Shown in pieces: positions 1 through 30,808 of a stretch of DNA of 33,477 nucleotides. The stretch's first letter is position 1; each line of letters begins with the position of its first letter. Below the pieces are notes generated by a model. It was not told the DNA's origin. It searched no databases and saw only the letters and a list, made by a program, of their open reading frames with translations. The DNA lies in assembly GCA_008632985.1 (NCBI GenBank), contig QPGO01000090.1, forward strand, positions 310,001-343,477, written 5' to 3'. Source of the DNA: Psammoneis japonica (taxonomy: Eukaryota). The translations under genes were made by a program, and so were the position numbers.

Positions 1-83
1 ACACATAGATCTTGGCTTCTACCGTACGAAACGAGCGCACAAGCCCGGGAATTTGACAGTCAGTGTTGTGTGCCCATTTCTTA

Positions 84-1796
84 TCATGTCCATGGGAGCC
101 AGTTCACATGCATGGCATTCCCAAGAACAATGTAGATTAAACAATAATACAGGACAAGGTGTCCCCTCTCAACCTTTGATTCGTTATCTTTGTCGGTCCC
201 CTGAATAAGGAGAGTTGTCATGTACCAGTAAATGGCAGGGCACGACGAGAAGATGAGTCGTGTCGAAACTTGTACGTGTGCGACCGTTGCTCCAACAAGG
301 GAAAAAGCTGATAATACCGCAAAGTGTGTCAGAACGTGAGGTCCCATCAAAAGGGCGCCTTCCTCGGAGGCCGACGCGGTTGAGGAGGGTGCTACCGAAG
401 CCTCCAACGCAAATATCGCCCATTGTATTATGTGAATGGGACGCTTCCAAGAAACTGCTTCGTATGCGCGCTCAGAGTTCGAGGGAGAAGTTTCTCTGGC
501 TACAAACGACTTCCAACTGGCGTGAATCCATGTCAGCGAACCAGAAAACCCCAACCACAAGACAGGGGTAGCTAGAAAAAGTTTGGAATTTGTTTCAATT
601 CATAATAGCGTAGAAATCCGACGTTCCAATGCTTACGTTGCACGTATCCGTAGAGAGAGAAGGGAAGTAGATTCGTTTCTTCTTGTGCCGTTGCGCACCA
701 AGACGGTTGCATTGTTGAGTCTGACAAACAATGAAACGAGTAGCCTCGCCAGTCATGAAAAATGACTGGTAGAGCGACAATCACTGCTAGCATCAAATAA
801 TATGCTGCTCTGACAAGTGACCATGTCAAAGATGTTCCGCTCTGAATCGACTTTAGAAACGTGGCAACATTCCATATCAAGAGCCACAGAGACGCCATTG
901 TCCCGTTTGAGCGGACAAAGGATGCGATTGTCCACAGGAGAGTAGCCGCCACTACATTGCCTCGAAACGCAACATTGTATCCCAGAAAGGTTAGAAAAGC
1001 AAAGGATGATTCCGAGTAGGCTGTCGAAAAGAAGACGCTAGCCGGATTGATGCAAAAGAGAACGGCGCAGACTAGAGCATGGTGAAGACAGCGTTGCACC
1101 TCGGTGGGAGTCAAGGTGCTTGGGTCATTCGAGGTGTTTCGTGCCGCCACTCTATACGTCAAATCATGCAACACCAATGATGTCATTACGAACAAGATGA
1201 AATTGACAAGGATGGCTGCCAACACCGATACCCCTTCAAACGATGGTGGTAGGGCTACACCAGGAATGATCCACACCAAGAACAAGGCGGTGTAACGAAT
1301 CATCAATGGAAACAGCGGGAAAAAGGCATGTGCCTGTTCCGACAGGACAAAAAGATCGTCATTTTCACAAGTCTTGTCGTCTCCGCAATGGCTTTCCACA
1401 TCCACCAGAACGGGTATTGGTTTCCGCGCATCCGGATGCACCGCAAGTCTCAGAAAACGAGCAGCGTCCCATCTTGTAAAGGGCGTCAGCATAACATTGT
1501 AGATTTGTGTTAAGAATTTTGACGACTCCATGTGCGTTGTATCTGTGGCGCACTCCCTGAACAATGGATCCCAATGCCGGTCGTGGTGTGCTCGTTTGTC
1601 ACAAGCGTCTCCGTGGAGGCAAAAGCACGGGGGACCGTCGTTGAGCGGAGGTCGAAGCGAAGTACGTCTTTCCCGGGGTCAAAAAAGTCGCCAACAACAG
1701 CAGCTGAAGCAACCATACCCAAACAGATCACAAGACGTGATGCTATTGAAAATCGAACTATAAATGTCGGGAATCTTTCATTGAATCGGACGGCAT
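84..1796 (-). CDS. PIGV: GPI mannosyltransferase 2 (PIG-V/GPI18), split by three apparent 1-nt deletions (~1762, ~1645, ~577)
   Basis: Motifs 'FSIASRL', 'FTRWDAARFL', 'HAFFPLFP', 'FCINPASVFFSTAYSES', 'YVQRKHWNVGFLRYYELKQIPNF', 'HVQVSTRL', 'HVNWLPWT*' lie across ORFs 1510-1731, 572-1564 and 84-560. Adding one base at each junction (two A-runs; the ~1645 site is only approximately placed) joins them into one frame. Confidence 0.88.
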
Positions 1797-1996
1797 TTTA
1801 GCAGCCACTGCCGGAGATTCGTCATGATGAGCCTTTTACTGTGCCGTAGGAAGAGAGTCAATTCTGTTTCGCAACCTTAAGGGATTGTTCTAAGCTGCAA
1901 TGTCGAGCTCAATATCTATTGCCAACAAGCAACCATCAACTCTGGGTGCCACCTCATATCTTTTGCTCATGGTGGTGCCGCACTCTCCATCACTCG

Positions 1997-2017
1997 CTCG
2001 CTTCTCGCTTCTCGCTT
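1997..2017 (+). repeat. (CTCGCTT)x3 short tandem repeat at the left edge of the Copia remnant
   Basis: ctcgcttctcgcttctcgctt read directly. Confidence 0.8.
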
Positions 2018-2039
2018 CCTCGGTGTAGTCACGAGTCGA

Positions 2040-4220
2040 ATCACGGATGACCCTCTGTGTCAGGTGTCAGGCGGTCTCCACAGCTGTGACTGCAGCAGCG
2101 CATCCACACACAGCAATCACCAAAATGGAAGCAAAGAAACAGAGGCAATTCGCTTGTTCAGTGGCCAAGAAAAAAAAACACAGAAGGGAAAGATTGTGAG
2201 GTGCACGCAGAAGGAATGCACTCAAGGCATGCATCTGGCGAGGTCCGCTGAAGATGTGGCACGCAACGACTTCAGCAAAGAAGAGCTGAAGCTGGGAATG
2301 GAGATGAGGACAGCAATGCCAAAAGATGACAAATCAGACTGCCAGGAAATGTTGCTGCAGAAACAACAAAAGGAAAGGGAGCTGGAGTTCCAGCACAAGG
2401 CAAAGCTTCATGACTGCAATGACAAAGTGAGGCAGTTCAAAAAGAGCAAGATTGCAGCACTTGCCAAGACATTGGATGAGACTGCTGCACCAAGCAAATG
2501 AAACAGAGAGTGCAAGCTGATCCCACCCATGCAAAGATTGGGGACAATCTGATTGGCAGCAGGAAACTGGATGCCAGGGGACAAAATCATGTGCAGAAAT
2601 GAGATGAAAAGATGTCTTGTTGGTGGATGGTGACAATGCCAGCGCAGATGGCTGCCACCAGATCTGATTGATCTGCCCATTGAAGCCAAAGCAGAGGAAC
2701 TGCATGGCGTGGATTGCAGCTGGTCAACAATCAACCAGAGACAAGCATGAACCAAGTCAATGAAGACTTTGGTGTGCAGATGAAATCATCCTTGACAATG
2801 GTCCAACCCCCTCAGCGTGGCAGCTGGCCGAAGACCAGTGCACAATGTGTGCAGCTGGCAAAGGTCAAGACAGACCTTTCCATGAGTGCAGGAGCAGACA
2901 CTTTAGACAAGGACTGCACCATGCCTGGATGGGGGATGTGAAGCTTGGATCACAGAACGCAGCAGCAAACATTTTAAGTTTGAAGGATGTGAAGAGCAAG
3001 TGTCGTGTTGCACATGACAACTGAGTGGTGGATGAGTTGCAGTTGCTGGAGGAGAAGACCAGCAAGAGAGCTGCGGTGTTCAAAGTTGATGACATTCTTG
3101 GACTGCATGCCTTTGAACCAAGCAAGAAGTTCTTTGACTGCACAAAGAACTCCAAGAAAGCAAGTTTCATGTGAGCATGCTGTGTCTAAGACAGAGAAGA
3201 AGCTCAACAAGAAGAGCAACAAGAGCAACAAGAAGTGCAGGAGTGCATCCAGTCATTCTGATGGTGGAGCAGGACTCTGCAGGCTGCTCCAAGAGGGCCA
3301 AGCAAGCACTCAGGCTGTGCTGCAAGGCTGGAATCCCCAGCGTGAGAGATTGAAGCTGTTTTTGCAATCAAACCAGGTGAAGAATCTGTTCATGGCACCT
3401 GAAAACATGGACAAAATGGTGGACAATCAGGGGGCACCTGTTGACATGCTGAAAAGAAAGACCAAACACCCACATCAATCCCATGACATGACAACATTGT
3501 TGCAATCTCACCTGAGACATGTGAGAACAGAGAGAAGGTGCAACCCCACTCTGTGCTGACACATTGTGAAAGCAAGCAGAGTGAAGATCCTGCATGTGGT
3601 TGTCATGACAATCAAGTGTCAATCAAGTGCAAAACTGCAATCCAAGAAAACATGCTGATGTGTGCAACACATTGGACACGACACTGCGCCAATGCAACAT
3701 GGCTTTGTTCAAGCAGATTGACTTTGTTGAGTGCAATCCTGGGTTCAAGCTGTCTGCAAATGCCACCAGCAACCATGTTCCTGAAGTTGAACAAAGTGTC
3801 AAGACCATCAAGGAGCAAACTGGAGCCACAGTGCACCACATGCGGGTGAGGCAATGCCCAAGCTGATGTGCAAGTGTGCCATGATCAAGAATGCCATGAT
3901 GGCAAGCATGTGCCCACAAAAGAAAAAATCTTGTCTGATGCATGCAGTCCACACACTGTCATGCAAAGAAGAAACCTTGACCATGACAAGCACTTTGCAC
4001 ATGGATTTGGCACATTTGTCGGACTCCTGTTCAACATTGAACACAATGGACATGCATGGTGTTGACAGTGCACACCTGCAACCACATCTTGATGTTCCCA
4101 AAGGCAGTCACTGCACAATGAACCTGCACACAGACAAGCAGCTGAATCCCTGCAAGTGCACTGCCACACCCCTGACCAGTTCTTGATGAACTGACAAAGT
4201 TGAGGATGAGGCCAGCCATT
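2040..4220 (+). mobile_element. Degenerate, 3'-truncated Ty1/Copia LTR retrotransposon of the diatom CoDi type (gag, protease, pre-integrase, integrase; no RT/RNase H seen)
   Basis: Collinear frame-hopping remnants: 'MPGWG..ANILSLKDVKSKCRVAHD' (~2920-3018, protease region), 'RAKQALRLCCKAGIPSVRD/LKLFLQSNQVKN..GAPVDMLKRKT' (~3293-3463, GAG-pre-integrase), 'TLDTTLRQCNMALFKQIDFVECNPGFK', 'HVPEVEQSVKTIKEQ' (from 3774), 'SDACSPHTVMQRRNLDHDKHF..FGTFV', 'NTMD..AHLQP..GSHCTMNLHT'. These match the order and wording of diatom Copia polyproteins as recalled. Confidence 0.85.
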
Positions 4221-7200
4221 TTCCTTTGGATCTTTGCAGTTGAAACTTGCTCTCACAGCAACACATCTGAAGGTCAAGAAAAGCCTTGACCTGCCAGCAA
4301 CCCATTCCTCACTTCCTTGTTCAGGCACCTGGAGAACTGGATCTTGTTTTTCTCATGTGCAACTGAAAGATGCATGGTGACATCCACTGAAGTGCCAGTT
4401 GTTTGAACACAAAGAGAAGGACTCTTTTTGTCTGATGCAGAGGCAAATTTTGATGTGCTCCAGCTCCAGGTGTGACCTCACAGTGCTGAACTGTGACATT
4501 GAAAGTGTTGTGAGACATGCCACATGTTGCACGTGCACATTTCTGCATGACTTTGGTGGAATTTTGCATCATTCTTTTGCAGTGCAGTTGTTGAGCTGTT
4601 CATCAAACAATTCTTTGAAGATGTCTGCAGAATGGCACAGGCACAGATGGAATTTTCAAAAGTTTTGGCTGTGCAGACCTTTGATGTGCCACAAACTTGG
4701 TTGGTTGTTCAAATGTAAAAGGGCTGGAGCATGTTTTCTTTTCCTCCATTTGCCTTCCAGGGACTTGGCTTCTGCCAGTGTTCTTCAGCCACAGTGCTGG
4801 CAAAGAAAGAGAAAGACCAAGTTCCCAGTTTTTTGCAAATCAGTGCAACAGCTGCTCAAAAGCTTCAGGGGGAGGAGGACAATTGAGAACCTGGTTGTCA
4901 ACAACTTTGGCTGCAGAGATGACTGGGTCAGGGCAGTTTTCTCTAAAGTCACAACAAGAGAGGGGACCACTTGGTCTTGGGAAGAAGCTTGATGGCAGGA
5001 AAATGTGGGTCATGTTGCTGGCATTGAAAAAATGAGTTCCTTGGTCACTCCAGGCACACAGACAAGGGTGCTCCAAGAATGTTCTCAGGCAAATGACTGT
5101 GCAAGACACTGCAGTTGAAGATTGTCATCATTGGACAATGGCATTTGACAACACAGAAACAAAGGGGTCAAGCAGTTTGAACATGGGCCCCATTTTGAAA
5201 GTGAGCCTTTCATGCAGAAAGCACAAAATCCAAAGCTCCATCATCTCAATGGAAAAGAAGTGCTGCAATGTGTCCACAGACATGGTTGCAGGTGAACATT
5301 TAAAGACAAAGCAACTGGCGGTCGAATGTTCAGTGTCAATGACCACACAACAGAAAAGTGGTCAATCAATTGACCAGGAGTCAATCACGAGGCAGATCTA
5401 AATCCAGAATGTCATGTTTGGTCACACAAAGCAATTTGTGTCAAGTCCCATGGCCTTCCAAATTCATTGGACACTGTTTTGTGTGCAAAGACCACTTGCA
5501 ATTTTGGTCATTTTGAAAGTGGTCATCCCCAAACCACAACTTCATCTTGTCTGTGTGCCTCCAGTCTGGGTGAGGGCAGGGCAGGGGAGTGACACAGATG
5601 GATGCTGGTCAAGCCAACATTTGCTTGTGATTTTTTTGGAATCATGGTGGGTGCCACTGCTTTTCAAAGAGGACCTGCACAGGGCTTGGGTGGCTTCCTT
5701 GGTTGATTGACAAAAAGTTCTTCAATGACACAGAGCCAGGCCCCCACAAGCAACCACCGAGAGATGATCTTGGACAAAATGTTAAAAGTGTTGCGGAGGA
5801 CAGGAACGACTGGATGGCAGAAATGAGCTGAGTGCAAAGGCAAAGCCGCAAACATCATTGGACATGATGCCATGCATTCTTTCAATTTCTTGCACATTCA
5901 ACACTGGCAGGGCTTGCTTTTTGGTGCTGCATGTGTCCACTCTTGGCCAAGGAATCTGAGAAAAGGCCTCAACTGAGCTGCAGGCCAGGGGTCATCTGCA
6001 AGAAACAATGTTCCTGCAATCATCCCCACCTTCTTGCACAGCTGCACTCAGCTCACTCCAAAGCAGATCAAGCAGAATGCCGTGGCCTGTCAGCAGCAAC
6101 AAACCGGGGAAATGGCACACTCCTCATGAGAGCAGCATCCCAGCTAGAAACACTTGATGGCACAACATCATGACATCAAGTGTTGGGTTTTAAAAGTTCT
6201 GTTTGAGGCTTGCCAAGTCAACAGTGTCTTGGAAAAGATGTGTCACATCACTTGCATTTTTTGCACAGACAAAACAACTGGACCTGGGAAACCTCTCCTG
6301 TCACACACAGTTAGAGTGTTTCCTTGGTGTCTGCTTGTAACTGAGAAATGGTTCACTTTGCCACACACCACTTGCCTCAAATGACCAAACCAGCCATGAA
6401 AGAAAAGGCATGAGCCAACGCCACCAACAAGGCCACCAAAGGCTTCATCTGGGATGCAAAAAATGAACCAATCATTTGTTGTGTCTGGGGCAAAAATTTG
6501 CTCTGCAAAGTTTGACTGAGAACAGCCCACATCATTTTGTGAACAGCCATCATGTCCAAAATCCTGTGCTGCCTGCAAGCTCAACCCACAATCCATCTTT
6601 TTGAGTTGTTGCTGAGATCTGGCCTGAAATCTGCCTTGCTGGCAGAGCATGCAACAATTGCAGGGAACAGTGTGGCTGCATGAGAGAGAGAGAAAGAGAG
6701 CATGTGCAGGATCCTTTGACTGTGAGTCAACAAGTGTTTCTGTGCCTGTCAAAGCCGCTGTCAACAACAGAGTGGTCTGCGTGCAATTGTGAATGTCCCC
6801 TTCCCTTGCTCTGACACATGTGATTTTTTCTAGCCAGGCATCAACAAGAGACAAATCTTCCTGTTGGAATGATGGAAAACACCCCTGACAGATCAACTTG
6901 TGCCTGTCACACATTGAGCCAAGAACAGCAGGACGAACCCAGCACTTCGCCAGTTCTGCATCCCAGCATTTTTAACAAATGGTTTTGAATGGTCAGGGCT
7001 TGGGGCTTTTGGGTCAGGGGCCAGGGAGTGGAACTTTTAGCAAAGCTCCTGTTTGGGATGACATTAAAAGCAGGTGTGACTGATCTAACAGTTTATCTGT
7101 GACATGACCGAGTCAACCCATGAGGAGTTGGCGCCCTGGGATGAAGTCGCTATTCTCAGAACAGCCACCTTGGAAGGTGTAACAGAGATTGAGCTGATGG

Positions 7201-7330
7201 CCAACCCAAGCACAAAAAGAAGAGCATAAAAAGATTTGGACCAAACAGTGGAGAACAGTGCATGAAATGTTCTTGCTTGTCTCATGTGTGAGCACATCGC
7301 CATCAACAGCCTTGTGATCCAACACGACAC
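2050..7330. other. Island 1: CpG- and TpA-depleted, TpG/CpA-rich DNA
   Basis: Hand count 2041-7080: 16 TA and ~35 CG in ~5 kb, versus 23 TA and ~32 CG in bases 1-600. No TA between ~3190 and ~4715. Confidence 0.95.
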
Positions 7331-7391
7331 GGTCCCACTTGCCTGCACAATTGTTGTGTGACTCTTTTTGGCAATTTTTCTCCGGCGCCAT
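4300..7391 (-). mobile_element. Degenerate Crypton-like (Ndc10/GCR1-type tyrosine recombinase) element or pseudogene
   Basis: Minus-strand remnants in the expected order: ATG at 7391, 'LVGGVGSCLFFHGW' (cf. CPVGALAFYLFxRF), 'SDVTHLFQ' (VTHLFQ at 6229-6246; HxxR if CAA derives from CGA), 'ALMRSVPFP' at 6107-6133 (cf. MRSIAGFP), and C-terminal 'PSVPVPF..FKELFDEQ' (~4590-4650). Pattern recognition only; left boundary approximate. Confidence 0.45.
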
Positions 7392-7554
7392 CGTCCTGGG
7401 TTCGCGGAAAGACGACGCTTTCTCCTATTGTCGACACGACTCTCATCATGGTGGATACTCTGCCGCACAAAAAATATCGAACAGAGGCTTCCGGCCGCTA
7501 CGCAAAGTTGTGAACCCTAAGTATCCATGTTACCGAAAGACTAATAACCCAAAC

Positions 7555-7571
7555 AACACACACACACACAC
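7555..7571 (+). repeat. (CA)n microsatellite just downstream of the CWC15 stop
   Basis: aacacacacacacacac. Confidence 0.85.
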
Positions 7572-7601
7572 CATTCGAATTCCTTTTGTTCCTTCTTGTT
7601 T

Positions 7602-8538
7602 TCAACGAACGAACTTGTTGAGGAAGCGCTTGTGAAAGTCGTTACGAACGGTATCATTGATGAACCGCTTCTTAAGTTCGGGTTCTCCCTTGGCCTGATT
7701 TCGAAAGACGACATCATCATTCCACCTTCGCTTCATCTTTCCAGAAGAGGCGGCGCCGGCATTAAGCAGAGGATTTCCCATGAGTGCAGCTTCTTCAAAC
7801 CTCCCCTCTTCTTCTTTTGCTTCCTGCAGATGCAAAGGGGGCAGAAACAGTGGGACTTGATTGGCTTACGGAACAAAGCAAACACCACAGTTTCTCAAAG
7901 TTCGTACTTACCTCTGTTTCAGCAGCAGCCTTTGCAGCTTCCCGCTCGGCACGTATTTTTGCAAGCTCCGCCTGAAGGGCCTCTTCATCGTCGTCATCAT
8001 CATCCTCGCTGGATTCCGAGTCTGAAGCATCCAAGTCAGAATCATCACTTCCCACGTCGTCATTCCACCCGTCCGAGTCGGGGCCATCCCCGCCATCGTC
8101 ATCAGCGTCATCGTACTTTTTTCGTATTCTGGTAATTCATTTCAAAGAGATAACAGAGAACACAATTAGTTACAAAAAGAACAAGAAAGACGAGACATGC
8201 ACAGCCGTAGAGGCGATAGTTAGCAGCAATACGACTGAACTCACTTCTCTTCGTCTACATCTGCCGTTTGTTTCAATAGCCTCCGCCGCCCTTCTTCTTC
8301 AATCTCGGGTACAATTTTCGTTTGGGTGGCGCAACCTTGGCTTCGGCTTGTTCCAGCTTACGAAGGGATTCTTCGAGCGCTTCCTTCTTGTCAATGACTT
8401 GAGACCGAAGCTTGAGTTTGGTATGGGCAGCAGCGTCCAGAGCCGACCGCGACGCGGAAGGAGCACCACCAGCGGTCCATCCACCTCCTGAGCTTGACCT
8501 ACAGCGGCCTTCCATGTCGGTCGATGTGCGGTTGTCAT
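7602..8538 (-). CDS. CWC15: Spliceosome-associated protein Cwc15; introns 8129-8244 and 7824-7911; two apparent 1-nt deletions (~8485, ~8315)
   Basis: 'MTTAHRPTW', 'HTKLKLR', 'ALQAELAKIRAER', 'GNPLLN', 'KRRWNDDVVFRNQA', 'FINDTVRNDFHKRFLNKFVR'. GT-AG introns restore the frame. Confidence 0.93.
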
Positions 8539-8936
8539 GTCTTCAGGCTATTTCCAAGTCCACAGTGTTGCTGTTTTCCAAGTTTCAAAGTGAGCTGTGT
8601 GGTGCTCCGTGCCTCGTGCCGCTCGGCTTCGTGCTTCGTGCTTTTCGCTTTTTTGGTGGTGATGAACGTTTTCAGTTTTGGTCGCTGTGCTCTTGCAAAG
8701 CGTCTATCCTTCAACCGACGGTTCATCGCCAATTTTGAAGTGATGACGTGGATCGAGAAAGTGAGAACTTTTTGACACGAACACGCAACTCACCCTTTCA
8801 AAAATGGCGGTCGGTTTGCGGTCTTGTGGGAGCTGCAGAGTTGACGCTTCTTATCTCTTTGCCCCCATACTGCTACAGGCTGCAAACGAGTGTCGTTATA
8901 TTCCGTACACCAAAACATCCAGAGAACAAAGGCATT

Positions 8937-10145
8937 ATGCTTGGTTTTAAAGCTGCGGGAGAACTCTTACGTTCACTTGCTGAAGAGAGGAAGAGGGCAC
9001 GTGAAGAGAGTACTGAACAATCCGCAGGGGGCAAGAAGGTTAGCTTCGCTCAAGGTGGGGAAGCGACTCCACTTTTGGAAGCTAACCATGCTACTGCAAC
9101 AATCAGAGACTTGGAAGCAGGAAGTGAAGGCGACAGCAAAAGTTTGTCAGGAGTCTTTCATACATACGAGCAATCCAGAGGCGCAGCTGGACTTTGTGCG
9201 CTCCTCTTCCTGACGTACGTGCTGGTGGCAATTATTGCGTTCAGTTTCTGCTTTGAAAAGTGGCCGATCCTGGACTCAGCATATTTTGCCGTTACTACAT
9301 TCACAACAATCGGATTTGGAGATATCGTGCCGACCAACCCGGCAAGCAAGATCTTTACAGTTATCTTTACCTTGTACGGTGTTTGCATCTTAGGGTTCCT
9401 ATTTGGAATCGTAGGGCAGGCAATATACGAAACACAACGAGAGGCACGACGCGAAACCAAACGAAAATCGCAACTACGGGTAACTCGAATGTTTACAATT
9501 TCAGATGATGGGTCGTTTGATCCAGAGCATCTACCCCCCGGTATCCTCGACGATGATCAGCCAAGCGAAAAGCCTCTCTACAAGGAAATTCTTGAAATAG
9601 TTTGGCTTGAAACACCAATGCTTGCCTTTATTGGCTTGTTCACAGCACTTATCGGCATGATCGAAGGGTGGTCACCCGTGGATTCTCTATACTATTGTGT
9701 TATATCTCTCACAACATGTGGCCTGGGAGACGTCCATCCAGACACTCCGGTCTCCGTGTTTGCAAATATATTCTTCCTCCCACTTGCAGTTGCAATGTTT
9801 GGAGAGATTCTTGCTCGGATCGCCGGTGCCTATATCAATCGTAAGGCGAGGCAAAAGGAAGAAGAGTTTTTACAACGTGAGCTAACCCTGAGTGACTTGG
9901 AAGCAATGGACGAAAACCTTGATGACAAGGTTGAACTACACGAGTTTCTATCCTTCATGCTTGTTGCAATGCAAAAGGTCGACAAGAAATCTATTGACGA
10001 ACTGAAAGAGATCTTTTACAAGCTGGACCTGGACGGGAATGGAAGTCTAGACAAGGGAGATTTGATCATGTTGGCGCGACGAAAACGAGAAATAATGGTT
10101 GGGAACGGGTCTTCTCATAGCTTTCGACGATCTCACACGCACTGA
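8937..10145 (+). CDS. Two-pore-domain (TPK/KCO-like) K+ channel with two C-terminal EF-hands
   Basis: 4 TM/2 pore layout, 'DSAYFAVTTFTTIGFGD' and 'DSLYYCVISLTTCGLGD', EF loops DENLDDKVELHEF and DLDGNGSLDKGDL. First in-frame ATG at 8937. Confidence 0.9.
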   Translation: MLGFKAAGELLRSLAEERKRAREESTEQSAGGKKVSFAQGGEATPLLEANHATATIRDLEAGSEGDSKSLSGVFHTYEQSRGAAGLCALLFLTYVLVAIIAFSFCFEKWPILDSAYFAVTTFTTIGFGDIVPTNPASKIFTVIFTLYGVCILGFLFGIVGQAIYETQREARRETKRKSQLRVTRMFTISDDGSFDPEHLPPGILDDDQPSEKPLYKEILEIVWLETPMLAFIGLFTALIGMIEGWSPVDSLYYCVISLTTCGLGDVHPDTPVSVFANIFFLPLAVAMFGEILARIAGAYINRKARQKEEEFLQRELTLSDLEAMDENLDDKVELHEFLSFMLVAMQKVDKKSIDELKEIFYKLDLDGNGSLDKGDLIMLARRKREIMVGNGSSHSFRRSHTH

Positions 10146-10246
10146 CAAGATGATTAGGGTTGGACTTGCAGATTGCTGCACTTTATATGAATATTACGTC
10201 AAAGATGAAGCTACGGTTTCCACTCTAGAGAAAGCGATTTCATATG

Positions 10247-12532
10247 CTACCTCTTGCTTGACGATTTGTGCTTCTTTCGCCTTTTCTTTTCATGCTTTCT
10301 ACGTTTCTCCTTCTTCTTTCGTTTCCGTCTCTTGTATGAATCCACGCTACTGTCCACAGAACTACTGTCATGAGAGTTGCTTCGGTGTCGCCTCTTTCTA
10401 CGTCGTTTTCTTTGTTCAACACTTCCAAGATTGTCCTCAACGGATTTGTCATCCGATTCGTTGTCGACTTGGGGCTTGTCAAGTGGTTCGGATTCGGTCG
10501 TGTCCTGTGCTCGATCGATTCTGGCGCTAGCGGCTGGAGGGCTTGGTGTAGCAGCCTTATCAGTTTCATTTGCCGTAGCTGGTTGCGTTTCAGTGTCCCC
10601 GATTTCGTCCATGTGGGATTCTTCGTCGGATTCTGAAGAGGCAGAGTCCGGCTCAAATATTGATTTAAAAACGTCCATGGATGGACGATTCTCTGTCTCC
10701 AGTGGAGGCTCCTTGTCCTCATCTGGTCCATGCATAATATCTTTTGAGCTTGGCGGAGCTTTGCGTTCTCTGTCGGCAGCAGATGTCTTGTTGAGAATTT
10801 CATTCTTGAAGAATTCAGCTTCACTTCCTTGTGTCGGGACGTTGTCAGTTGATAACACAGTCGACGACGGAGCAGCTACGTGAAACCTCTTACAAAGCAG
10901 CTTTGTAGGAACAAACAGTTGGACCGTCCGAGTTATGACAATCTCAGCTTCTTTTGTGTCCTTCGTGTCACCTGCTGTGTCAGTCTTTGGTCCTTCAGCG
11001 GCTGCTTGTTTCTCTCCTGGAGTGGGCACGTGGAGACCGACAGGGCGCGCTGTTCCGCCTTCAGTAGTTGGAGCGCGGCTGTCGCCTGTCGTAAATCGAT
11101 TCTTCATTGCTATTGCGAGCCCAGAAAAGGCACTGCCTGCCATGGGTGTCTGAGAGGATCGATCTTCCGTGCCGATGTCGTTGGTGTTTCTCGTTGCTGG
11201 AAGAAGCGATTGGACTGAAGCAGCGTGTTTTTGCTCTACCAATGTTTCACGTTGCATAACCCTTGACATATCCCCAAATAACGCTGGATGTTCGTCCTCT
11301 CCAAATTCATGGCGCTTCACTGTGTAGTCAAACGGCACATCTGGACCTGCATAACGAAGGGCTTGTACGGCCGATGCCTCCTTGTTCCCGGTCGTTTCTT
11401 TTTTCGCAACGGTACTGCTACCGAGAACAAAGCCTGCAAGCGGAGGACGTCCATCAGAGGTAACTCCCTTGCTAGCGCTTGTCGTGCTTGAAGCTTTCGC
11501 TGTATTGTCCAGGGATGCCCATGAGGCAAAAACTCCGCCAAAGTCATCTCCCGGTTTGTTGGCACCGTCGCCTTCTTCCTCATCGCTGTGGTGATCATGA
11601 AGCACAGTGTCGTATTCGTCATCATCCACTTTTAAAGGTTGACCCGTATTACGATCCGAGGGATTGTCATCGTAGACATCATCCTCGTCCTCTCTCAACG
11701 CAAAGCCCCCAACCGTCCTTGAACCGATGAAATCTTCCACCGTCTCATAAGACACATTATGATTGTCATCGTCTCCCATAGGATGTGAATGCTGTCTTTG
11801 TCTTTCGTTTTTTTCATTGTCTTCGGTATCTAGTAAACTAGACATGCGGTATGTGTTGTGCCCCGAGCCACTGCCCGTGGCCGCCCGAGCACGCTGTTGT
11901 GCGAGCTTCTTTCGCTTCTCCATGTGCCGCTGAAATTCTGGAGCATCTCGATGCGGACTAAAGCCAATTCCACAGACATCTAGCTTTGGAGTCGGTATAT
12001 GAACTCGAGACTGCTGCAGACGAATCCTTTTCAATTTTTTTGCCGACAGGAGGTTCTGCTCTTCGAGAGCATCATTAGTTGTTGTCGCAGCATCAGTGTC
12101 TCCATCCAGCGGTACAATTGCGGTTGCTGAACCGTCTCTCCATCCCATGACTCGTAGCAGCTTAAGCCCGACATTTTGAGGCGGTTCTGTGGATGCAACC
12201 ACTCGTTCCAAGTCGTTCAAAGATGAGGTCTTCCGCATTTTCTGGGAATCATCATATTCTCTCTTGACCGACGATGGACCTCCCCACTGATTATGATCGT
12301 CTTCATCCATAAAGTCTTCCTTTCGCTGCTGTACTCGTTTCGGTTTCCTTTTCGGTTGTTGCACATTCTGAATCGCATCGTTTTCCTCTTCTTGATTTGA
12401 CGGAGTCCAGCCTTCTTTGGAACCCACCGTGTTGTAATACCCAGCGCTGAAGCCACCTGTAAAAGCACCATGAAAGTACGGCTTCTTTTGCCGTCGTTTG
12501 TTCCTCGGAACAAAGAGAGGTCTGCCCGACAT
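10247..12532 (-). CDS. GPATCH1: G-patch domain-containing protein 1 (GPATCH1/TOUGH-like)
   Basis: 'FHGAFTGGFSAGYYNTVGSKEGWTPS', 'EDFMDEDD', G-patch 'VGLKLLRVMGW', 'PTKLLCKRF', 'RPSMDVFKSIF', basic K/R tail. Intact 761-aa ORF. Confidence 0.92.
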   Translation of the reverse strand: MSGRPLFVPRNKRRQKKPYFHGAFTGGFSAGYYNTVGSKEGWTPSNQEEENDAIQNVQQPKRKPKRVQQRKEDFMDEDDHNQWGGPSSVKREYDDSQKMRKTSSLNDLERVVASTEPPQNVGLKLLRVMGWRDGSATAIVPLDGDTDAATTTNDALEEQNLLSAKKLKRIRLQQSRVHIPTPKLDVCGIGFSPHRDAPEFQRHMEKRKKLAQQRARAATGSGSGHNTYRMSSLLDTEDNEKNERQRQHSHPMGDDDNHNVSYETVEDFIGSRTVGGFALREDEDDVYDDNPSDRNTGQPLKVDDDEYDTVLHDHHSDEEEGDGANKPGDDFGGVFASWASLDNTAKASSTTSASKGVTSDGRPPLAGFVLGSSTVAKKETTGNKEASAVQALRYAGPDVPFDYTVKRHEFGEDEHPALFGDMSRVMQRETLVEQKHAASVQSLLPATRNTNDIGTEDRSSQTPMAGSAFSGLAIAMKNRFTTGDSRAPTTEGGTARPVGLHVPTPGEKQAAAEGPKTDTAGDTKDTKEAEIVITRTVQLFVPTKLLCKRFHVAAPSSTVLSTDNVPTQGSEAEFFKNEILNKTSAADRERKAPPSSKDIMHGPDEDKEPPLETENRPSMDVFKSIFEPDSASSESDEESHMDEIGDTETQPATANETDKAATPSPPAASARIDRAQDTTESEPLDKPQVDNESDDKSVEDNLGSVEQRKRRRKRRHRSNSHDSSSVDSSVDSYKRRKRKKKEKRRKHEKKRRKKHKSSSKR

Positions 12533-12972
12533 TCTCAGATTTTGCAGTTTTGTGGCCTCCTGTTGATGTTACGCGTAAATCGCCATGGTCACAGCCTCCC
12601 GCTTGCTGCCGCTGTTCACCACGGTCAAAGCAGCGAAATAATGCGAAAATAAAAAAATTGTTGCTCATTCGCCTGTTAGTCGTCAGTGTTGAAAGCTTGA
12701 CGCGAGTTAGCTATTTTATATATTATCTACGGCACTGAGGTATTTCATACCTATCGGTGTTCGCGCGCATCCGAGTCGTGGTTCTTCGTGCCACCACAGC
12801 GAAGCGCGAAAACGCTCACACTAAACTCGTGATTCACTGTCTTCTGCTTATAATTTTTTTGTTATCTTTATGAGAACTTCGCGGTGTGTTTCGGCTGGCT
12901 GGGGGTCGCACGACTCTAACCGCGTTTGCATAAATGAGAGCATAAGATTTTTCATTCGAAAGTGAACCAACA

Positions 12973-14703
12973 ATGATACAACTCCCGACTGCACATTCGC
13001 CACTCAATCATCTCTCTGTCAATCAGATGCCACACGGGATCCCATCGAGAAACAGTCCCCAAAGCCAATTGAAGAAAGGAGCTCCAGCGAAAAGAAGGGG
13101 GCGAGCGTCCAACCTCTATCAGGCGATTTCACAGCCGACTACTTCCCGTGATACCAGGCACGATACAAGCAACCACGACCAAAGTAGTTCACAGTCAAGA
13201 TCTCCATTGCTCCTATCAAGAACCAGGAAAACCCCAGAACACTCTTCAAACCGGGTCCGTAGATCGAGTCGATCGCAGGACGATGGATCGGACCAGCCCA
13301 TGGTTCCGGGCCGTCGTGTCGGCCAGCCAAAGACGCTTTTGAGTCCGAGGTACGAACATTCGATTTCTTCTTCTCCTGTAAGCCTGGTGCCTACTTCGTC
13401 TCTGTCATCCGCCAGCAGCGATGAGGACGAGTCAACTGTAGACGGCGCATTTGTCTACAATCACAACGGCCAAAAGATCGTACATGTGGAAAGCAATGAA
13501 ATCAACCATGACAAAAGTAAAAACTCACACGGACCAGGCAACGATTCGTACGAGGGTGAGAGTGTCGACTCTGAAGAAGACGACTCTGTCTCCACAAGCA
13601 CCGAAACAAGCACCGAAAGCAGCCGCGATGAGGACGACTCAACCATAGAAGGCGCCTTCGGCAACCGTAACGTACGTGTTGAAAGCAATGATACGACCAA
13701 TGATCACCGTCAATGGTCGAATGGAGTAGACAACGATTCCTATGAGGAGGAGAGTGTAGACTCTGAAGAGGAGGACTCTGTCACCGCGAGCCCGACCGCA
13801 ACGCCGGTAAAACAGCAAGATCTCCGATCGGCCTTTAGAAGCACTCCGCGAGAGCACTCTTCAGAGTTTGAAGCGCTGTGGGCACGAGACCATGAAATGC
13901 CAAACTCAAAGGTGGCGGTATCGATGGACCATGCAAACGACGCTGATTGTCCGACGATACGAGAAGACACTGACGTTCCCCTCAATATCGTTGTGAATAT
14001 CATCGAATCTGAAGTGGAAAGCATCAGATCGTCAATCACGGCTGTGCTGGAAGAGGACGAAGTACCCGAAGCTCCGATGTTGGATAGTCAATCCCCTCCA
14101 CAAGAAAGACGCGTTGCATGTTCAAGGCCAAAGCAATACAAAATCAAGACTCCTCCCGCGCATAAAACGTCCTTTCTTGAAGGAAATCTCAGCAAAATGG
14201 GGACCGACTACTTTGGTCAAAGACCGCGCTTTGTGGAATCCAAAACGGGTGGGAAGCAGCTGTCCATGACTTCCAACCGAGACCCCCGAAAAGTGATTGA
14301 TAAGCACCTACGGACGTTGGGAACGGCTGTTGGACAGTCGCTTTCCCTAAACACCCGGAATGCCTGTTATTTCTATTTTGAAGACCTTCTGGTTAACGTG
14401 CACATTCCAAAGGATGATGAGAACGTGTTTGTGATTAGTTCCACTGTGCATCAAGCCGTTCCTGCTCAAGACAGCAATGTGATTCTTCAAGATATGATCA
14501 AATCAGAGTACTTTGGTCGCGACGCAGAAATGCCAACCATTACCATGAAGAACCAATTGCAACTCAACGTGTCTTGTACCGTGGGCGTACAGCAAACATA
14601 TGTGGAGTTCAAGAAATGTATGAAAGAGTTTAGGGACATGGTGATGGGCATGAAAGAACGGATAAGGGCGTCAAAGTTTCAGAATACACAATGTATTCGT
14701 TGA
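12973..14703 (+). CDS. Hypothetical protein: long S/D/E-rich disordered region plus C-terminal CesT/Tir-chaperone-like domain
   Basis: Intact 576-aa ORF. Last ~130 aa ('IDKHLRTLGTAVGQSLSLNTRNACYFYF..VHIPKDDENVFVISSTV..FKKCMKEFRDMV') resemble the type III chaperone fold pattern. Confidence 0.7.
   Translation: MIQLPTAHSPLNHLSVNQMPHGIPSRNSPQSQLKKGAPAKRRGRASNLYQAISQPTTSRDTRHDTSNHDQSSSQSRSPLLLSRTRKTPEHSSNRVRRSSRSQDDGSDQPMVPGRRVGQPKTLLSPRYEHSISSSPVSLVPTSSLSSASSDEDESTVDGAFVYNHNGQKIVHVESNEINHDKSKNSHGPGNDSYEGESVDSEEDDSVSTSTETSTESSRDEDDSTIEGAFGNRNVRVESNDTTNDHRQWSNGVDNDSYEEESVDSEEEDSVTASPTATPVKQQDLRSAFRSTPREHSSEFEALWARDHEMPNSKVAVSMDHANDADCPTIREDTDVPLNIVVNIIESEVESIRSSITAVLEEDEVPEAPMLDSQSPPQERRVACSRPKQYKIKTPPAHKTSFLEGNLSKMGTDYFGQRPRFVESKTGGKQLSMTSNRDPRKVIDKHLRTLGTAVGQSLSLNTRNACYFYFEDLLVNVHIPKDDENVFVISSTVHQAVPAQDSNVILQDMIKSEYFGRDAEMPTITMKNQLQLNVSCTVGVQQTYVEFKKCMKEFRDMVMGMKERIRASKFQNTQCIR
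13414..13788 (+). repeat. Intragenic diverged tandem duplication (unit starts 13414 and 13621)
   Basis: SSDEDESTVDGAF..HVESNE..NDSYEGESVDSEEDDSVS versus SRDEDDSTIEGAF..RVESND..NDSYEEESVDSEEEDSVT. Confidence 0.9.
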
Positions 14704-14949
14704 TAATTGCATCTAAAGTTTACATATTTCTCTTGCCGTTCTGCTCTATAGTAGTGTCACGTAGTCAGGAGGAAATTTGAATTCCTAAAGATAGTCTACG
14801 GAAGACTTGAAGCGAGCGAATGAATGATTGAGACACCGCGCCGCCGCCGGTAAAGTCGTGGGTCGTCTGTCCAGCCAGCGACCCGGCATTGTCGGCTTCC
14901 GTCTACTCTCTAGAGTCGAAATTCTTTTCACGCCATGCGTTGACCCGCT

Positions 14950-16430
14950 GTTGAGGTGATCGCTTTGAACAGAACCGGTTGTGGACCTGTGCACTGTTGG
15001 AGCAGCAACTGCATTCTGGTCATCAAAGTTGGGTTGACTGTTGTGGAGTTGGGCACCCCCATGGTGTGCTGGTTTCTCCATCAAAAGGTGCTGCGAGGAG
15101 AGAAAACAGTCTTTTTCACAGCACTTGCCAGTGGCCCGGAGGCCCAGAAGGCAAAGTGTGGAAAAGCTTGCTTGGCGCTCGCTGGCGCCAATTGATGTGA
15201 AAAGAAGTGCTGGGTTGGGCAAACAATGACAAAAAAAGCAAAATGGCTGATTGTTTTTTTTTTTCAATGTGTTGAGTTGTTGTTTCTGGATTTTTTGGCG
15301 CCTTCTTGTTGCATGACCACAGCAAACAGCTTTGGTCACATGAGGCATGGTGTCAGCAGATGTCACAATCATTTGAGCACTGCAGAGAAATGCACACAGT
15401 TGCGGGTTTCTCTGTGCATGTGTGCATGTCTTTCTTCATTGATGTCCTTTGCTGCAGTTGACAGTGTGGATGAAAGGACCTGGAGACACTCATTTTCACC
15501 CTTGCCGCACACACACACCAAAAACAGCAACAGCACTTGACTGAGCAACTCATCAGGCCAGCTGGGAACTCCACCCATGATGAGGACCCAAGCAGGTGCT
15601 TGTTGCTTCCAACTGGTGTCTCTCACAAAACTGGGGATGTTTTGTAAATTTTGTGAATCTGGCATGAGAAATCAATGTGAGAAGGGCAGAGCACCCAGAG
15701 CAAAGCTTGTGTTCTCAGCCTTCCTGCTGCAGTGAGCAGCCAAGAGCATCTTGTAAGACTGTGGGAAGAACAGCAAAAAAACAAGAGCAAGAGCTCCCGC
15801 TGTGTGTCTGCTTGAACTCAATTGACAGCAGAAGCAGCTGGGTTGTTGGTGGCAAACAAAACAAGGGGCAGCAGCTTTCCTGTGACAGCCACATGTGGGG
15901 GGAGAGGGGGTGTTGGAGAAACCTGCCTGGCTCCAACAAAAACAAGAAGAGAGCAGCACGCACATTGTGCACAGAGCCGCAAATCTGTGGAAACAGATTT
16001 TTCAGTTTTTGAACCTTCGCTGTGAAGGTGCTGACAAGGAGATGTGCAAAGGCTCAGGCCAAGGTTGCTGACAATGGCACAGGTGGTGCACCCTGTGATT
16101 TGCAGGGACCAGGGGTGCTGTGGCATTGGGAGAGGAGGGTGGTCGGGGAAAATTCTTGGTGGTGGAGCAGGTGCGTGCACGGTGGTCAAGGAAAATTGGT
16201 GGTGGAACAGGTGTGCAAAGTGCTCTTGGCAATGGAAAAAAGAAAGAGGGAACCAAAGTGTGGACAGACGGTTGGAAAAGGGAGTTGTCGGTGGCGGTTG
16301 GGTGGCGGAGCAGAGGGGTTTCTTGATGTGCGGAGTGGTGGGTGGCTGGGTGGAGAGGGCCATGGCGAAGTTTAGGCTGAGGATTTGGGAGGCCCAGCTT
16401 TGGGATTGGCTGTGTGGTGGGAGATGCCGA
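14950..16430. other. Island 2: CpG/TpA-depleted unclassified (probably repeat-derived) DNA
   Basis: Only 3 TA found by hand (GTAA ~15644, GTAA ~15754, TTAG ~16373) in ~1.5 kb; CG sparse; CpG-rich flanks. Confidence 0.9.
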
Positions 16431-16447
16431 ACCGGTCAGGGGAGATT

Positions 16448-16540
16448 CCATCGCATCTACCGCGTCTATCTATCCGTCCGCGACGTCCATCCACGGATCT
16501 ATCTACCGGCATCCATCGCTGTCCGTCCATCGATGCATCG
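16448..16540 (+). repeat. Degenerate (ATCY/GTCC)n simple repeat at the right border of island 2
   Basis: catctaccgcgtctatctatccgtccgcgacgtccatccacggatctatctaccggcatccatcgctgtccgtccatcg. Confidence 0.6.
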
Positions 16541-16734
16541 CAGTAAAGCATAAGCGCCCTTCCAAAATAATTCGATTCTGAGCGAGGACAGACTGTACCG
16601 GGCTTCTACGTGATTGAGTTACTGTACCACACTGTACGGCCACACTTGCACAGAGAAAATCGCCAAAAATCGAATGCCGCCAATGCAATTCAGTGTGACA
16701 ATGAGATTCTGGATTGTGTGAGTCTGACCCGACC

Positions 16735-19095: not shown

Positions 19096-19328
19096 TAGGC
19101 CCTACTAGAGAGAAGTATTAGCCATATCTCTGCTGCCAAACCGCTTCAGTCGTGTCATAACCGCAAAACGCCACCATCGAAAACAGATATATAGTATTTG
19201 GCATGTTCATGATTATTTTTAATGTTTTGCATTCGTCATCGGCTCTTCATTTTTTTCTGCTCGCACAGCCTCATAATAAACTCAACTTGAAATGCGCTGC
19301 ATTGTTTCGGAGAGGTCTGGTGCACCCA

Positions 19329-28950: not shown

Positions 28951-29010
28951 TTCTATTAGCTGTAGATTGTGGCCGGAGTTTCCGTGACCTTCGACCTTGC
29001 CGTGAGAAAA

Positions 29011-30805: not shown

Positions 30806-30808
30806 AAC
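29345..30808. other. Island 3: CpG/TpA-depleted DNA
   Basis: 3 TA by hand count (TTAA ~29397, TTAC ~30325, TTAT ~30666) in ~1.46 kb. Confidence 0.92.

Follow-up and report, generated by a model that had tools for sequence, protein, structure and literature searches.

Putatively silent islands nearly free of CpG and TpA in a diatom genome: a case for two mutational activities, one of them directed at TpA

The window analysed here, a stretch of 33,477 nucleotides of Psammoneis japonica DNA (assembly GCA_008632985.1, contig QPGO01000090.1, positions 310,001 to 343,477), raises the question of what can deprive whole blocks of DNA of CpG and of TpA at the same time. Four such blocks could be observed, the first from about 2030 to 7295 and the last from 31135 to the window end (Table 1); the three islands which an earlier note had claimed besides the first were found by sliding windows and by zone mapping. 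The TA-free zones together (10108 bp) contain 26 TA against approx. 390 expected at the host density, and the CG-poor zones (9390 bp) contain 55 CG against approx. 540. The recount of bases 2050-7330 gave 21 TA and 40 CG in 5281 bp (4.0 and 7.6 per kb), thus the extreme depletion was borne out, while the hand count reported before for the first island (16 TA and about 35 CG) was too low. Bases 1-600, with 23 TA and 32 CG, indeed have the 38 TA and 53 CG per kb given for them previously. In sliding windows the interior of island 1 had observed/expected (o/e) ratios of 0.00-0.11 for TA, 0.00-0.21 for CG and 1.7-2.25 for CA/TG, compared with 0.3-0.9, 0.6-1.4 and 0.8-1.4, respectively, outside it. 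For the four blocks, 1.3-5 kb each, the TA o/e was 0.01-0.06 and the CA/TG o/e 1.7-2.0; the CG o/e was 0.04-0.19 across the islands, and the loss shows up as TG/CA. The host genes were free of the pattern, as had been stated: all 13 of the 13 long host ORFs were normal (TA o/e 0.39-0.77, CG o/e 0.79-1.26).

The frequency of pyrimidine-purine (YR) steps is 237.5 per kb in the islands and 235.5 per kb in host DNA (sd 9.1 per 1-kb window). Conversion of every CG and TA of the host DNA would predict 235.5 CA+TG per kb; 227.6 were seen, together with 6.8 CG and 3.2 TA. Since the YR total is unchanged, the islands correspond to normal DNA whose CG and TA became TG/CA through transitions; as strings of purines and pyrimidines they look ordinary. 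The convergence on TG/CA proposed in the earlier note fits these values. The two outcomes are balanced (TG fraction 0.48-0.55) and no strand-coordinated runs were present. The simple conversion model left some residuals: ApT (47.6 per kb, predicted 65.4) and GA/TC (114.2, predicted 135.8) were too rare and GpC (72.1, predicted 55.7) too frequent. They reflect either an extra A:T to G:C pressure or ancestors whose composition was unlike that of the mostly coding host reference. AA/TT was not depleted (170.8, predicted 172.9). That TA was lost, and not simply never present, we infer from the conserved YR total together with the precedent of Bigelowiella natans, not from a polarised alignment; the TA versus TG/CA differences between copies (five in the flanks, three in islands 3/4 and one, at 7152, between the window and the contigs of sequencing run X1) are unpolarised.

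The borders of the zones were placed by likelihood change-point analysis of the YR steps. The TA-free and the CG-poor zones overlap largely, are offset by 60-330 bp and have gradual edges. In island 1 the CG-poor zone lies approx. 250-330 bp rightward of the TA-free zone, and at four of the five measured edges the TA-free zone extends 64-292 bp past the CG-poor one. The offset indicates that two activities are at work, and it gives a direct handle for separating them. CpG decay alone is unable to explain the TA loss, and a second, TpA-directed activity on the same stretches, as suggested before, is the best reading.

Table 1. Coordinates of the islands, their zones and the associated segments within the window
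Feature	Coordinates	Description
Island 1, TA-free zone	2030-6967	13 TA among 1183 YR steps (change-point and sliding windows)
Island 1, CG-poor zone	2273-7295	30 CG among 1194 YR steps (change-point)
Island 1, left edge	2030-2273	TA gone (0 vs 9.4 expected, P 8e-5), CG kept (11 vs 14.0 expected)
Island 1, right edge	6967-7295	CG gone (3 vs 18.9 expected, P 8e-6), TA kept (8 vs 12.7 expected)
55-base segment in island 1	4459-4513	Very many contigs stack; summed word depth of the bin 5568 vs about 60
Island 2	14917-16366	TA-free zone 14917-16366 (2 TA among 339 YR steps), enclosing the CG-poor zone 14980-16265
Flank copy 1	29008-29480	Normal composition; forms with island 3 a tandemly duplicated unit of about 1.8 kb
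Island 3	29401-30825	TA-free zone 29401-30825, 2 TA among 336 YR steps; CG-poor zone 29692-30805
Flank copy 2	30806-31262	Normal composition though between islands 3 and 4 (windows 30751-31250)
Island 4	31135-33477	Paralogue of island 3, continuing past the window end; the CG-poor zone begins at 31135 and the TA-free zone at 31183

Six-frame Pfam searches of all islands (18 of 18 translations, stops read as X) gave no protein family at E ≤ 0.05, and no reverse transcriptase, integrase or transposase domain. No recognisable RNA family was found in any island, the three island ORFs searched had no homologue, and the two ORFs compared with IMG/VR had no relative there. The window has no inverted repeats of at least 40 bases, terminal repeats were not found, and direct repeats occur only as the duplication of islands 3/4 and as a single pair unrelated to it (13413/13620). 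In R/Y space no repeat exceeded the reversed-sequence control beyond the island 3/4 matches and one within island 3; the R/Y period-3 signal did not exceed 3.7 in windows inside the islands, compared with up to 16.1 in host genes. The islands lack these domains and the terminal direct or inverted repeats of an autonomous transposable element, and their designation as transposon DNA is not supported; many look-alikes were found for island 1 only. Islands 1, 2 and 3/4 are mutually unrelated; only 3 and 4 are alike, in ACGT as well as in R/Y space. Thus the depletion is not a family trait.

Islands 3 and 4 share 68-90% identity as ACGT and 82-96% as R/Y, therefore transitions dominate between these paralogues. 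Their YR steps comprise 74 concordant CA or TG and 5 CA-versus-TG cases, and independent conversion after the duplication was seen rarely only. Between the flank copies, transitions were present at 11 of the 148 YR-step sites and at 4 of the 199 other sites (P 0.014), the eleven being divided into five TA-type and six CG-type cases. Flank copy 1 overlaps the minus-strand ORF 27688-29040 over its first 33 bases and also holds the region upstream of it. Of the 11 discordant steps, 9 point to a greater CG/TA loss in the gene-adjoining copy, a result that a simple rule of action on silent DNA only does not predict.

On balance we consider it probable that the islands are putatively silent intergenic DNA in which nearly all CpG and TpA were converted by two activities, adenine deamination being the likeliest for TpA. 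The near-complete conversion struck at least three unrelated sequences. The two activities would act on the same chromatin domains, one of them turning CpG into TpG/CpA through deamination of (probably methylated) cytosine, the other turning TpA into TpG/CpA by an A:T to G:C transition confined to TpA. The most likely chemistry of the latter would be an enzymatic deamination of DNA adenine, the inosine so formed being read as G. The enzyme would probably be a relative of ADAT2/TadA, targeted to chromatin that is silenced or foreign, where single sites would be hit in many separate events spread over a long period. A34, the natural target of ADAT2/TadA, always follows U33, and this matches the TpA rule. 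A DNA adenine deaminase is our leading guess for the TpA enzyme, and the process would presumably serve genome defence. The earlier statement that such a process was undescribed is outdated, since a 2026 preprint measured TpA to TpG/CpA hypermutation in B. natans (Mettrop et al., bioRxiv 10.64898/2026.01.13.699255).

A TET/JBP-type dioxygenase might instead act in silent chromatin and oxidise the T of TpA at its 5-methyl group, and perhaps the 5mC of CpG likewise, although we hold this to be unlikely. The resulting 5-hydroxymethyl- or 5-formyluracil would pair with G and lead to T to C changes at TpA, with the same TpG/CpA outcome, a route which seems similarly improbable. 5-formyluracil mispairs with G, base J occurs at TpA of trypanosome telomere repeats, and 5hmU prefers TpA in dinoflagellates. 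Since TpA is self-complementary, the outcome of thymine oxidation is indistinguishable from that of adenine deamination, and if CpG is methylated then both purged steps would be 5-methylpyrimidine-purine palindromes. However, the offset footprints of the TA and CG losses speak against one enzyme for both, and the authors of the B. natans study prefer a deaminase.

It is quite unlikely that the TA loss is a by-product of repair, in which T:G mismatches derived from 5mC would recruit Pol eta-like patch synthesis with A to G changes at nearby WA motifs; that TA decay merely trails CpG decay deserves just as little credit. The TA-free and CG-poor zones do mostly coincide, and the extension of the former at four of five edges is what patches might produce. 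However, Pol eta also targets AA, and AA/TT is not depleted in the islands, while the right edge of island 1 lost its CG yet kept TA. The hypermutation of B. natans is, in the available text, purely at TpA. The Pol eta candidate of the earlier note is thus a poor fit, since AA/TT is undepleted and the TA and CG losses separate at the island edges.

We give very little weight to the islands having been poor in both steps on arrival, as descendants of CpG/UpA-avoiding elements such as RNA viruses or retro-elements. The o/e values of viral CpG/UpA suppression are roughly 0.2-0.8, and the depletion observed here (0.01-0.19) is far deeper. In addition, the trait is common to three unrelated sequences that have neither coding periodicity nor a protein family, the YR total of the islands equals that of the host, their edges are gradual and offset, and the copies vary at the very same steps. 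The idea draws on the joint suppression of CpG and UpA that is known from RNA viruses and mRNAs (PMC3829696, in its available part).

Still harder to accept is an artefact, in which a long-read basecaller miscalled heavily modified bases and the true sequence keeps its CG and TA. The island bases were checked against exact-word contigs of X1, a public run from one sample. Its library type is not on record and this sample may be the source of the assembly, which leaves room for such an error; X1 is therefore not an independent biological replication. The contigs reproduced the islands, differing in 2-13 letters per piece, and bridged into the host DNA; their word depth (56-62) equalled that of the flanks, thus an assembly-only artefact is unlikely. 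Noisy long reads would not be expected to yield 31-letter words at such depth, and miscalling of palindromic steps on both strands should spare some CG/TA by tie. Island 1 is covered by contigs at 1128-2508, 2732-4177, 4544-5005 and 5472-7201 (3-13 other letters each), and a single contig (record 7, 8489-16179, with 2 other letters) runs from host DNA into island 2. The summed word depth of island 2 (64-65) is as in its flanks, and no stack of look-alike contigs at 80% likeness was found over 14675-16008. Many look-alike contigs are present in the sample for approx. 2.0-6.0 kb of island 1, the only island with such. Among the differences listed between the window and X1, all nine in island 1 are transitions, while host DNA has 16 transitions among 31 differences (Fisher P 0.007), and seven of the nine lie in CG/TA/TG/CA steps, for example TG versus CA at 4682-4683 and TA versus TG at 7151-7152. 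The six listed loose-end consensus sequences of X1 beside island 1 (180 letters) hold no TA and two CG, which means that related copies elsewhere have the same look as the island.

ADAR-like A-to-I editing of double-stranded retroelement transcripts, fixed by reverse transcription, is disfavoured and hardly credible: ADAR favours a 5' U (Mettrop et al., bioRxiv 10.64898/2026.01.13.699255, available text), but TG and CA are balanced without strand runs, the islands contain no reverse transcriptase or other domain, island 2 has no look-alike stack, and the hypermutable NCLDV region of B. natans is described in the same text as single-copy and transcriptionally silent.

TpA-specific hypermutation has so far been reported once, in 2026, in one unrelated alga. 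A second and far stronger instance, found in a diatom, would mean that the process is no peculiarity of one species, would offer a clean read-out in islands with a TA o/e below 0.06, and would shift the question to organisms for which genetic tools, methylomes and many genomes exist. The islands are also an annotation trap: they hold long spurious ORFs because TAA and TAG are gone, and their origin is beyond recognition by protein searches. It is possible, if rather doubtful, that diatoms and chlorarachniophytes share a chromatin-directed defence by TpA A to G editing of DNA, which would stand beside cytosine methylation, would be saturating in diatoms and would predate the stramenopile-rhizarian split. 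If this were true, it would be a eukaryotic genome defence built on DNA adenine deamination, in which silenced inserts are stripped of every TAA/TAG stop, TATA-like motif and CpG site.

Among the known systems, CpG decay through 5mC accounts for part of the pattern. Diatom transposable elements carry DNMT5a-dependent CG methylation (PMC9998398, available part), and the islands resemble the products of such decay in being CG-poor, non-genic and partly repeated and in their gain of TG/CA; its hallmark, a CpG depletion with a matching excess of TpG/CpA, was found, as the CG counts and the conserved YR total show. However, it covers only about half of the extra CA/TG and cannot remove TA. Fungal RIP is likewise a blockwise transition hypermutation of non-genic or repeated DNA in sharp contrast with the adjoining genes. 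It turns CpA to TpA and leaves strand-coordinated runs. A fungal-type RIP was rejected, since TpA is nearly absent from the islands whereas RIP would raise it; the coordinated runs are absent as well. RIP also needs duplicated sequence: islands 3/4 are duplicates and island 1 has look-alikes, whereas island 2 is at flank depth with no such stack. Relatives of RID/DNMT4 are mentioned for diatoms in the available part of PMC9998398. Joint under-representation of CpG and UpA is also found in RNA viruses and cytoplasmic RNAs (PMC3829696, available part), but there it stems from selection on expressed RNA and goes to a moderate depth, while the islands are non-coding and their depletion is near-complete and strand-symmetric. 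The tRNA adenosine deaminase family offers a likeness in its A-to-I (and C-to-U) activity on DNA. Amphioxus ADAT2, a tRNA adenosine deaminase, is said to edit DNA (PMC10354150). For the process in B. natans such an enzyme is so far a candidate only, Bn78255 being the ADAT2 candidate in the available text (bioRxiv 10.64898/2026.01.13.699255).

The closest parallel is the TpA to TpG/CpA hypermutation of integrated viral DNA in this chlorarachniophyte, which is described here from the available text of the preprint (Mettrop et al., bioRxiv 10.64898/2026.01.13.699255). In mutation-accumulation lines 230 of the 231 de novo mutations of two integrated viral regions were A>G/T>C changes, the GC-biased ones were all at TpA, and the rate was approx. 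1000-fold above that of the rest of the genome, which holds 124 TpA-depleted, CpA+TpG-enriched clusters, mostly unannotated. Both cases show, as a long-term trace, clusters of a few kb in which TpA is depleted and CpA+TpG is gained while the host genes are spared, and they would share the change of TpA to TpG or CpA by strand and its confinement to discrete, putatively silent, mostly unannotatable regions. They differ in that the diatom islands are known from their end state and the B. natans process from de novo mutations. The TA o/e of the islands is 0.01-0.06, compared with a Rho of 0.45 for the NCLDV region and a cluster cut-off of 0.43. CpG loss is near-total in the islands, while the available text on B. 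natans does not mention CpG. The B. natans targets are integrated viral DNA, and such an origin would be conjectural for the islands, whose two ORFs compared had no IMG/VR relative; the host is a stramenopile here and a rhizarian there. With these differences, the diatom islands would fit the saturated end state of a TpA process of the B. natans type, combined with CpG loss.

Four blocks of the window, referred to as islands 1 to 4, stood out in sliding windows, with TA and CG almost gone and CA and TG doubled. In island 1 (2100-7100) there were 18 TA and 33 CG, with observed/expected ratios of 0.05 for TA, 0.12 for CG, 1.78 for CA and 1.92 for TG. In the other three blocks the ratios were 0.01-0.06 for TA, 0.04-0.19 for CG and 1.71-1.97 for CA/TG, and in the rest of the window (22.6 kb) 0.56, 1.02 and 1.11-1.13, respectively. 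The hand counts of the earlier note were upheld both in island 1 (21 TA and 40 CG in 2050-7330) and in its reference stretch (23 TA and 32 CG in bases 1-600), as was its claim that host genes are spared, since TA and CG were normal in all 13 of the 13 long host ORFs. Zone borders were set by likelihood change-points. Summed over all zones, 26 TA were found where about 390 were expected and 55 CG where about 540 were expected, and chance is ruled out as the source of the shortage. The surviving TA were mostly TAA (30 of 52 pooled had A as 3' neighbour; host DNA 24%; P 8e-8), and among the surviving CG a 3' C was enriched (43/110, P 2e-5). Either the activities prefer certain contexts, or other mutations have created such steps anew.

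Change-point borders of the depleted zones, and X1 contigs over island 1 with the number of letters in which they differ from the window
Feature	TA-free zone	CG-poor zone	Contig span	Other letters
Island 1	2030-6967	2273-7295		
Island 2	14917-16366	14980-16265		
Island 3	29401-30825	29692-30805		
Island 4	from 31183	from 31135		
X1 contig over island 1			1128-2508	3
X1 contig over island 1			2732-4177	13
X1 contig over island 1			4544-5005	4
X1 contig over island 1			5472-7201	5

Rewritten as purines and pyrimidines (R/Y), the islands are ordinary DNA, and transitions within CG and TA steps suffice to produce them. The islands had 237.5 pyrimidine-purine (YR) steps per kb, with single islands at 233.6-241.7, versus 235.5 in host DNA (sd 9.1, 39 one-kb windows). 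If each CG and TA of host DNA were randomly converted, 235.5 CA+TG per kb would be expected, and the islands contained 227.6, plus 6.8 CG and 3.2 TA; about 850 transitions per 10 kb are needed to make them from normal DNA. Conversion of normal DNA at CG and TA is a very probable origin of the islands. The residuals of this model (observed/predicted per kb: ApT 47.6/65.4, GpC 72.1/55.7, GA/TC 114.2/135.8) may stem from an A:T to G:C pressure acting less strongly in further contexts, or from ancestors whose composition was different.

Sequence comparisons were made between islands 3 and 4, and with three runs of one public sample containing the stretch (X1, X2 and X3), over bases 1-20000. X1 has no recorded library type, and the sample, possibly the assembly's own, does not represent an independent culture. 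Where the window and X1 differ, transitions accounted for 9/9 of the listed cases inside island 1 and for 16/31 of those in host DNA (P 0.007). Of the nine, seven fall in CG, TA, TG or CA steps, among them TG versus CA (4682-4683) and TA versus TG (7151-7152). Islands 3 and 4 were 68-90% identical as ACGT and 82-96% as R/Y. Since 74 of their YR steps were concordant and only 5 showed CA versus TG, most of the conversion is older than the duplication that gave rise to them.

At the margins of the islands, the loss of TA and the loss of CG each occur alone. At 2030-2273 TA was absent (9.4 expected, P 8e-5) and 11 CG were present (14.0 expected), and at 29401-29692 there were 0 TA and 9 CG (11.3 and 16.8 expected), while at 6967-7295 it was CG that was scarce (3 versus 18.9 expected, P 8e-6), with 8 TA against 12.7 expected. 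These zones argue against one enzyme for both losses, and also against TA loss as a mere by-product of CpG-mismatch repair. The chemistry of the TA loss would, tentatively, be adenine deamination by a candidate enzyme, which is attractive because tRNA deaminases act on A after U. Thymine oxidation by a putative TET/JBP-type enzyme is an unlikely source of the TA loss. Still less probable is a putative Pol eta-like patch repair, offered as a candidate in the earlier note and disfavoured here because the two losses come apart at the margins and AA/TT is not depleted in the islands.

Relatives of island 1 are present in the sample. On the 20-kb stretch 541 X1 contigs were placed, 284 of them less than 90% alike, and the summed depth over 2002-6003 was 307-5568 versus about 60 in the flanks; over 6004-7337 and island 2 it was near flank level. 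The six X1 loose-end consensus sequences listed beside island 1 (180 letters) contained 0 TA and 2 CG, so related copies look the same. The contig pile-up reached its summed word depth of 5568 on a 55-base segment (4459-4513; flanks about 60). Loose ends of X2 and X3 beside this segment include CG and TA, the match being 55 bases at about 80%, and it may be a piece common to an abundant relative of normal composition. A search of metagenome contigs for intact relatives, using a degenerate pattern of 4459-4513 (CA/TG written as YR; 55 and 36 letters), gave 0 matches. The right edge of island 2 (16001-16500) was unusually G-rich (GC 0.56, GC skew about 0.25), and look-alike contigs piled up there as well (summed depth 176 versus about 60).

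Islands 1, 2 and 3/4 were mutually unrelated: the sole match, both as ACGT and as R/Y, was that of 3 with 4, and the best other R/Y match between islands was below the reversed-sequence control (73.8 bits). A tblastn search with the window's host proteins tied none of the islands to a host gene (best E 0.22); islands 3 and 4, in particular, are no decayed duplicate of the adjacent ORF 27688-29040. Therefore the composition was imposed on different sequences and is not the inheritance of one family. An intrinsic composition of the islands is thus highly improbable, since mutually unrelated sequences share the same state.

The island letters and junctions are backed by exact 31-letter words, since the X1 contigs run at single-locus depth: word depth was 56-60 on island 1 and 47-62 on host genes. 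A single X1 contig of 7687 letters spans 8489-16179 with 2 other letters, and leads from host genes through nearly all of island 2. These contigs exclude an assembly-only artefact and, in our judgement, a basecalling artefact of noisy reads as well; a sequencing or assembly artefact therefore has next to no likelihood. CA and TG outcomes were balanced (TG fraction 0.48-0.55), and strand runs of CA versus TG in the four islands (z 0.26, -1.97, 0.28 and -1.15) were like those of host DNA, with no coordinated deamination bursts visible. Thus the islands were built by many single-site events on either strand. An origin in a few strand-coordinated bursts and one in the editing of one RNA strand are both ruled out by this balance and the missing runs, and RNA editing hardly merits consideration.

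The earlier note had taken the islands for transposon DNA, a label which is left unsupported since nothing recognisable was found in them. No Pfam family was detected in 15 island ORFs (matches at E 0.01-0.1 lay below the cut-off and were taken as chance) or in all six frames of the islands (18 full-frame translations, stops as X). ORF 1881-2501 had no homologue at E <= 10 among proteins of near length, ORF 6243-6971 (minus strand) had 0 homologues among 1.84 billion representatives, ORF 4381-4992 had none among longer proteins, and two island ORFs had no relative in IMG/VR. The Rfam scan gave 0 matches, the tandem-repeat scan short, trivial repeats only, and no terminal repeats were found in the islands. 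An R/Y period-3 signal cannot be erased by transitions, and the scan for it left the islands without coding signal, with values no higher than 3.7 in windows inside them versus up to 16.1 in host genes. Open frames of up to 242 codons (6243-6971, minus strand), without homologue anywhere searched, arise because TAA and TAG are lost, and are easily mis-annotated as genes.

The right end carries a tandem duplication (29008-32290) of a unit about 1.8 kb long. This unit takes in 33 bases from the 5' end of ORF 27688-29040, about 440 bases of normal composition upstream of that ORF, and then an island. A purine-only (A/G) tract of about 45 bases (29425-29470 and 31205-31250) lies exactly at the flank-to-island transition in both unit copies. 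Both flank copies (29008-29480 and 30806-31262) retain normal TA and CG, including the one now between islands 3 and 4, from which we infer that the flank seems to be spared through some property of the promoter-like sequence itself, beyond the adjoining gene. Between the flank copies, transitions occurred at 11/148 YR-step sites versus 4/199 other sites (P 0.014), 5 of the 11 being TA-type and 6 CG-type. In these flanks, not yet saturated, TA and CG steps seem to mutate about equally readily. The gene-adjoining copy was the one without the CG or TA in 9 of the 11 cases, a pattern which a simple rule confined to silent DNA would not predict.

The window comes from the nuclear genome of a pennate diatom. 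A host protein of 761 residues with a DUF1604 domain (a G-patch-protein family) had its best named relatives in Amphora, Seminavis, Fragilaria, Cylindrotheca and Nitzschia (34-41% identity), and one unnamed relative at 54%. Three minus-strand ORFs in a row (21032-25253), two with RSN1_7TM and RSN1_TM pieces and the middle one without Pfam family, look like exons of a single CSC1/OSCA-type channel gene. Run X2, labelled 'DNA?', had contigs on genes only, at very uneven depth, and is RNA-derived, since in one contig an 88-base gap at 7822/7911 has the minus-strand ends GTAAGT...CAG; the gap marks an intron of a minus-strand gene at 7570-8128. There were zero X2 contigs on islands 1 and 2, and several genes likewise had none.

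As for known systems, CpG loss is the familiar outcome of cytosine (5mC) deamination, and fungal RIP is not a model for the islands because it creates TpA, whereas they are nearly without it. In diatoms, CG methylation of transposable elements depends on DNMT5a, and in some species DNMT4 enzymes occur that are relatives of RID, the enzyme of fungal RIP (PMC9998398). In a literature search, TpA loss in diatoms turned up nowhere, and the TA process was matched solely by a preprint on Bigelowiella natans. In its accessible text, 231 of 302 nuclear point mutations of mutation-accumulation lines fell in two integrated viral regions, at about 6e-7 per site per generation; A>G and T>C changes made up 230 of the 231, and every GC-biased one lay at TpA and yielded TpG or CpA (Mettrop et al., bioRxiv 2026). 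The genome has 124 TpA-depleted, CpA+TpG-enriched clusters, in which 81% of the predicted proteins are unannotated, and DNA adenine deamination by an ADAT2-like enzyme was proposed; CpG and diatoms are nowhere mentioned in that portion of the text (Mettrop et al., bioRxiv 2026). Thus the process, which the earlier note had thought undescribed, was already reported as far as TpA to TpG/CpA is concerned, and for the TA half we rather favour a B. natans-type hypermutation targeted to silent chromatin. The window is accordingly filed as a further case of this recently reported process and not as a separate kind: it has the signature given in the accessible part of the preprint, but near saturation, in a stramenopile host and with CpG loss added.
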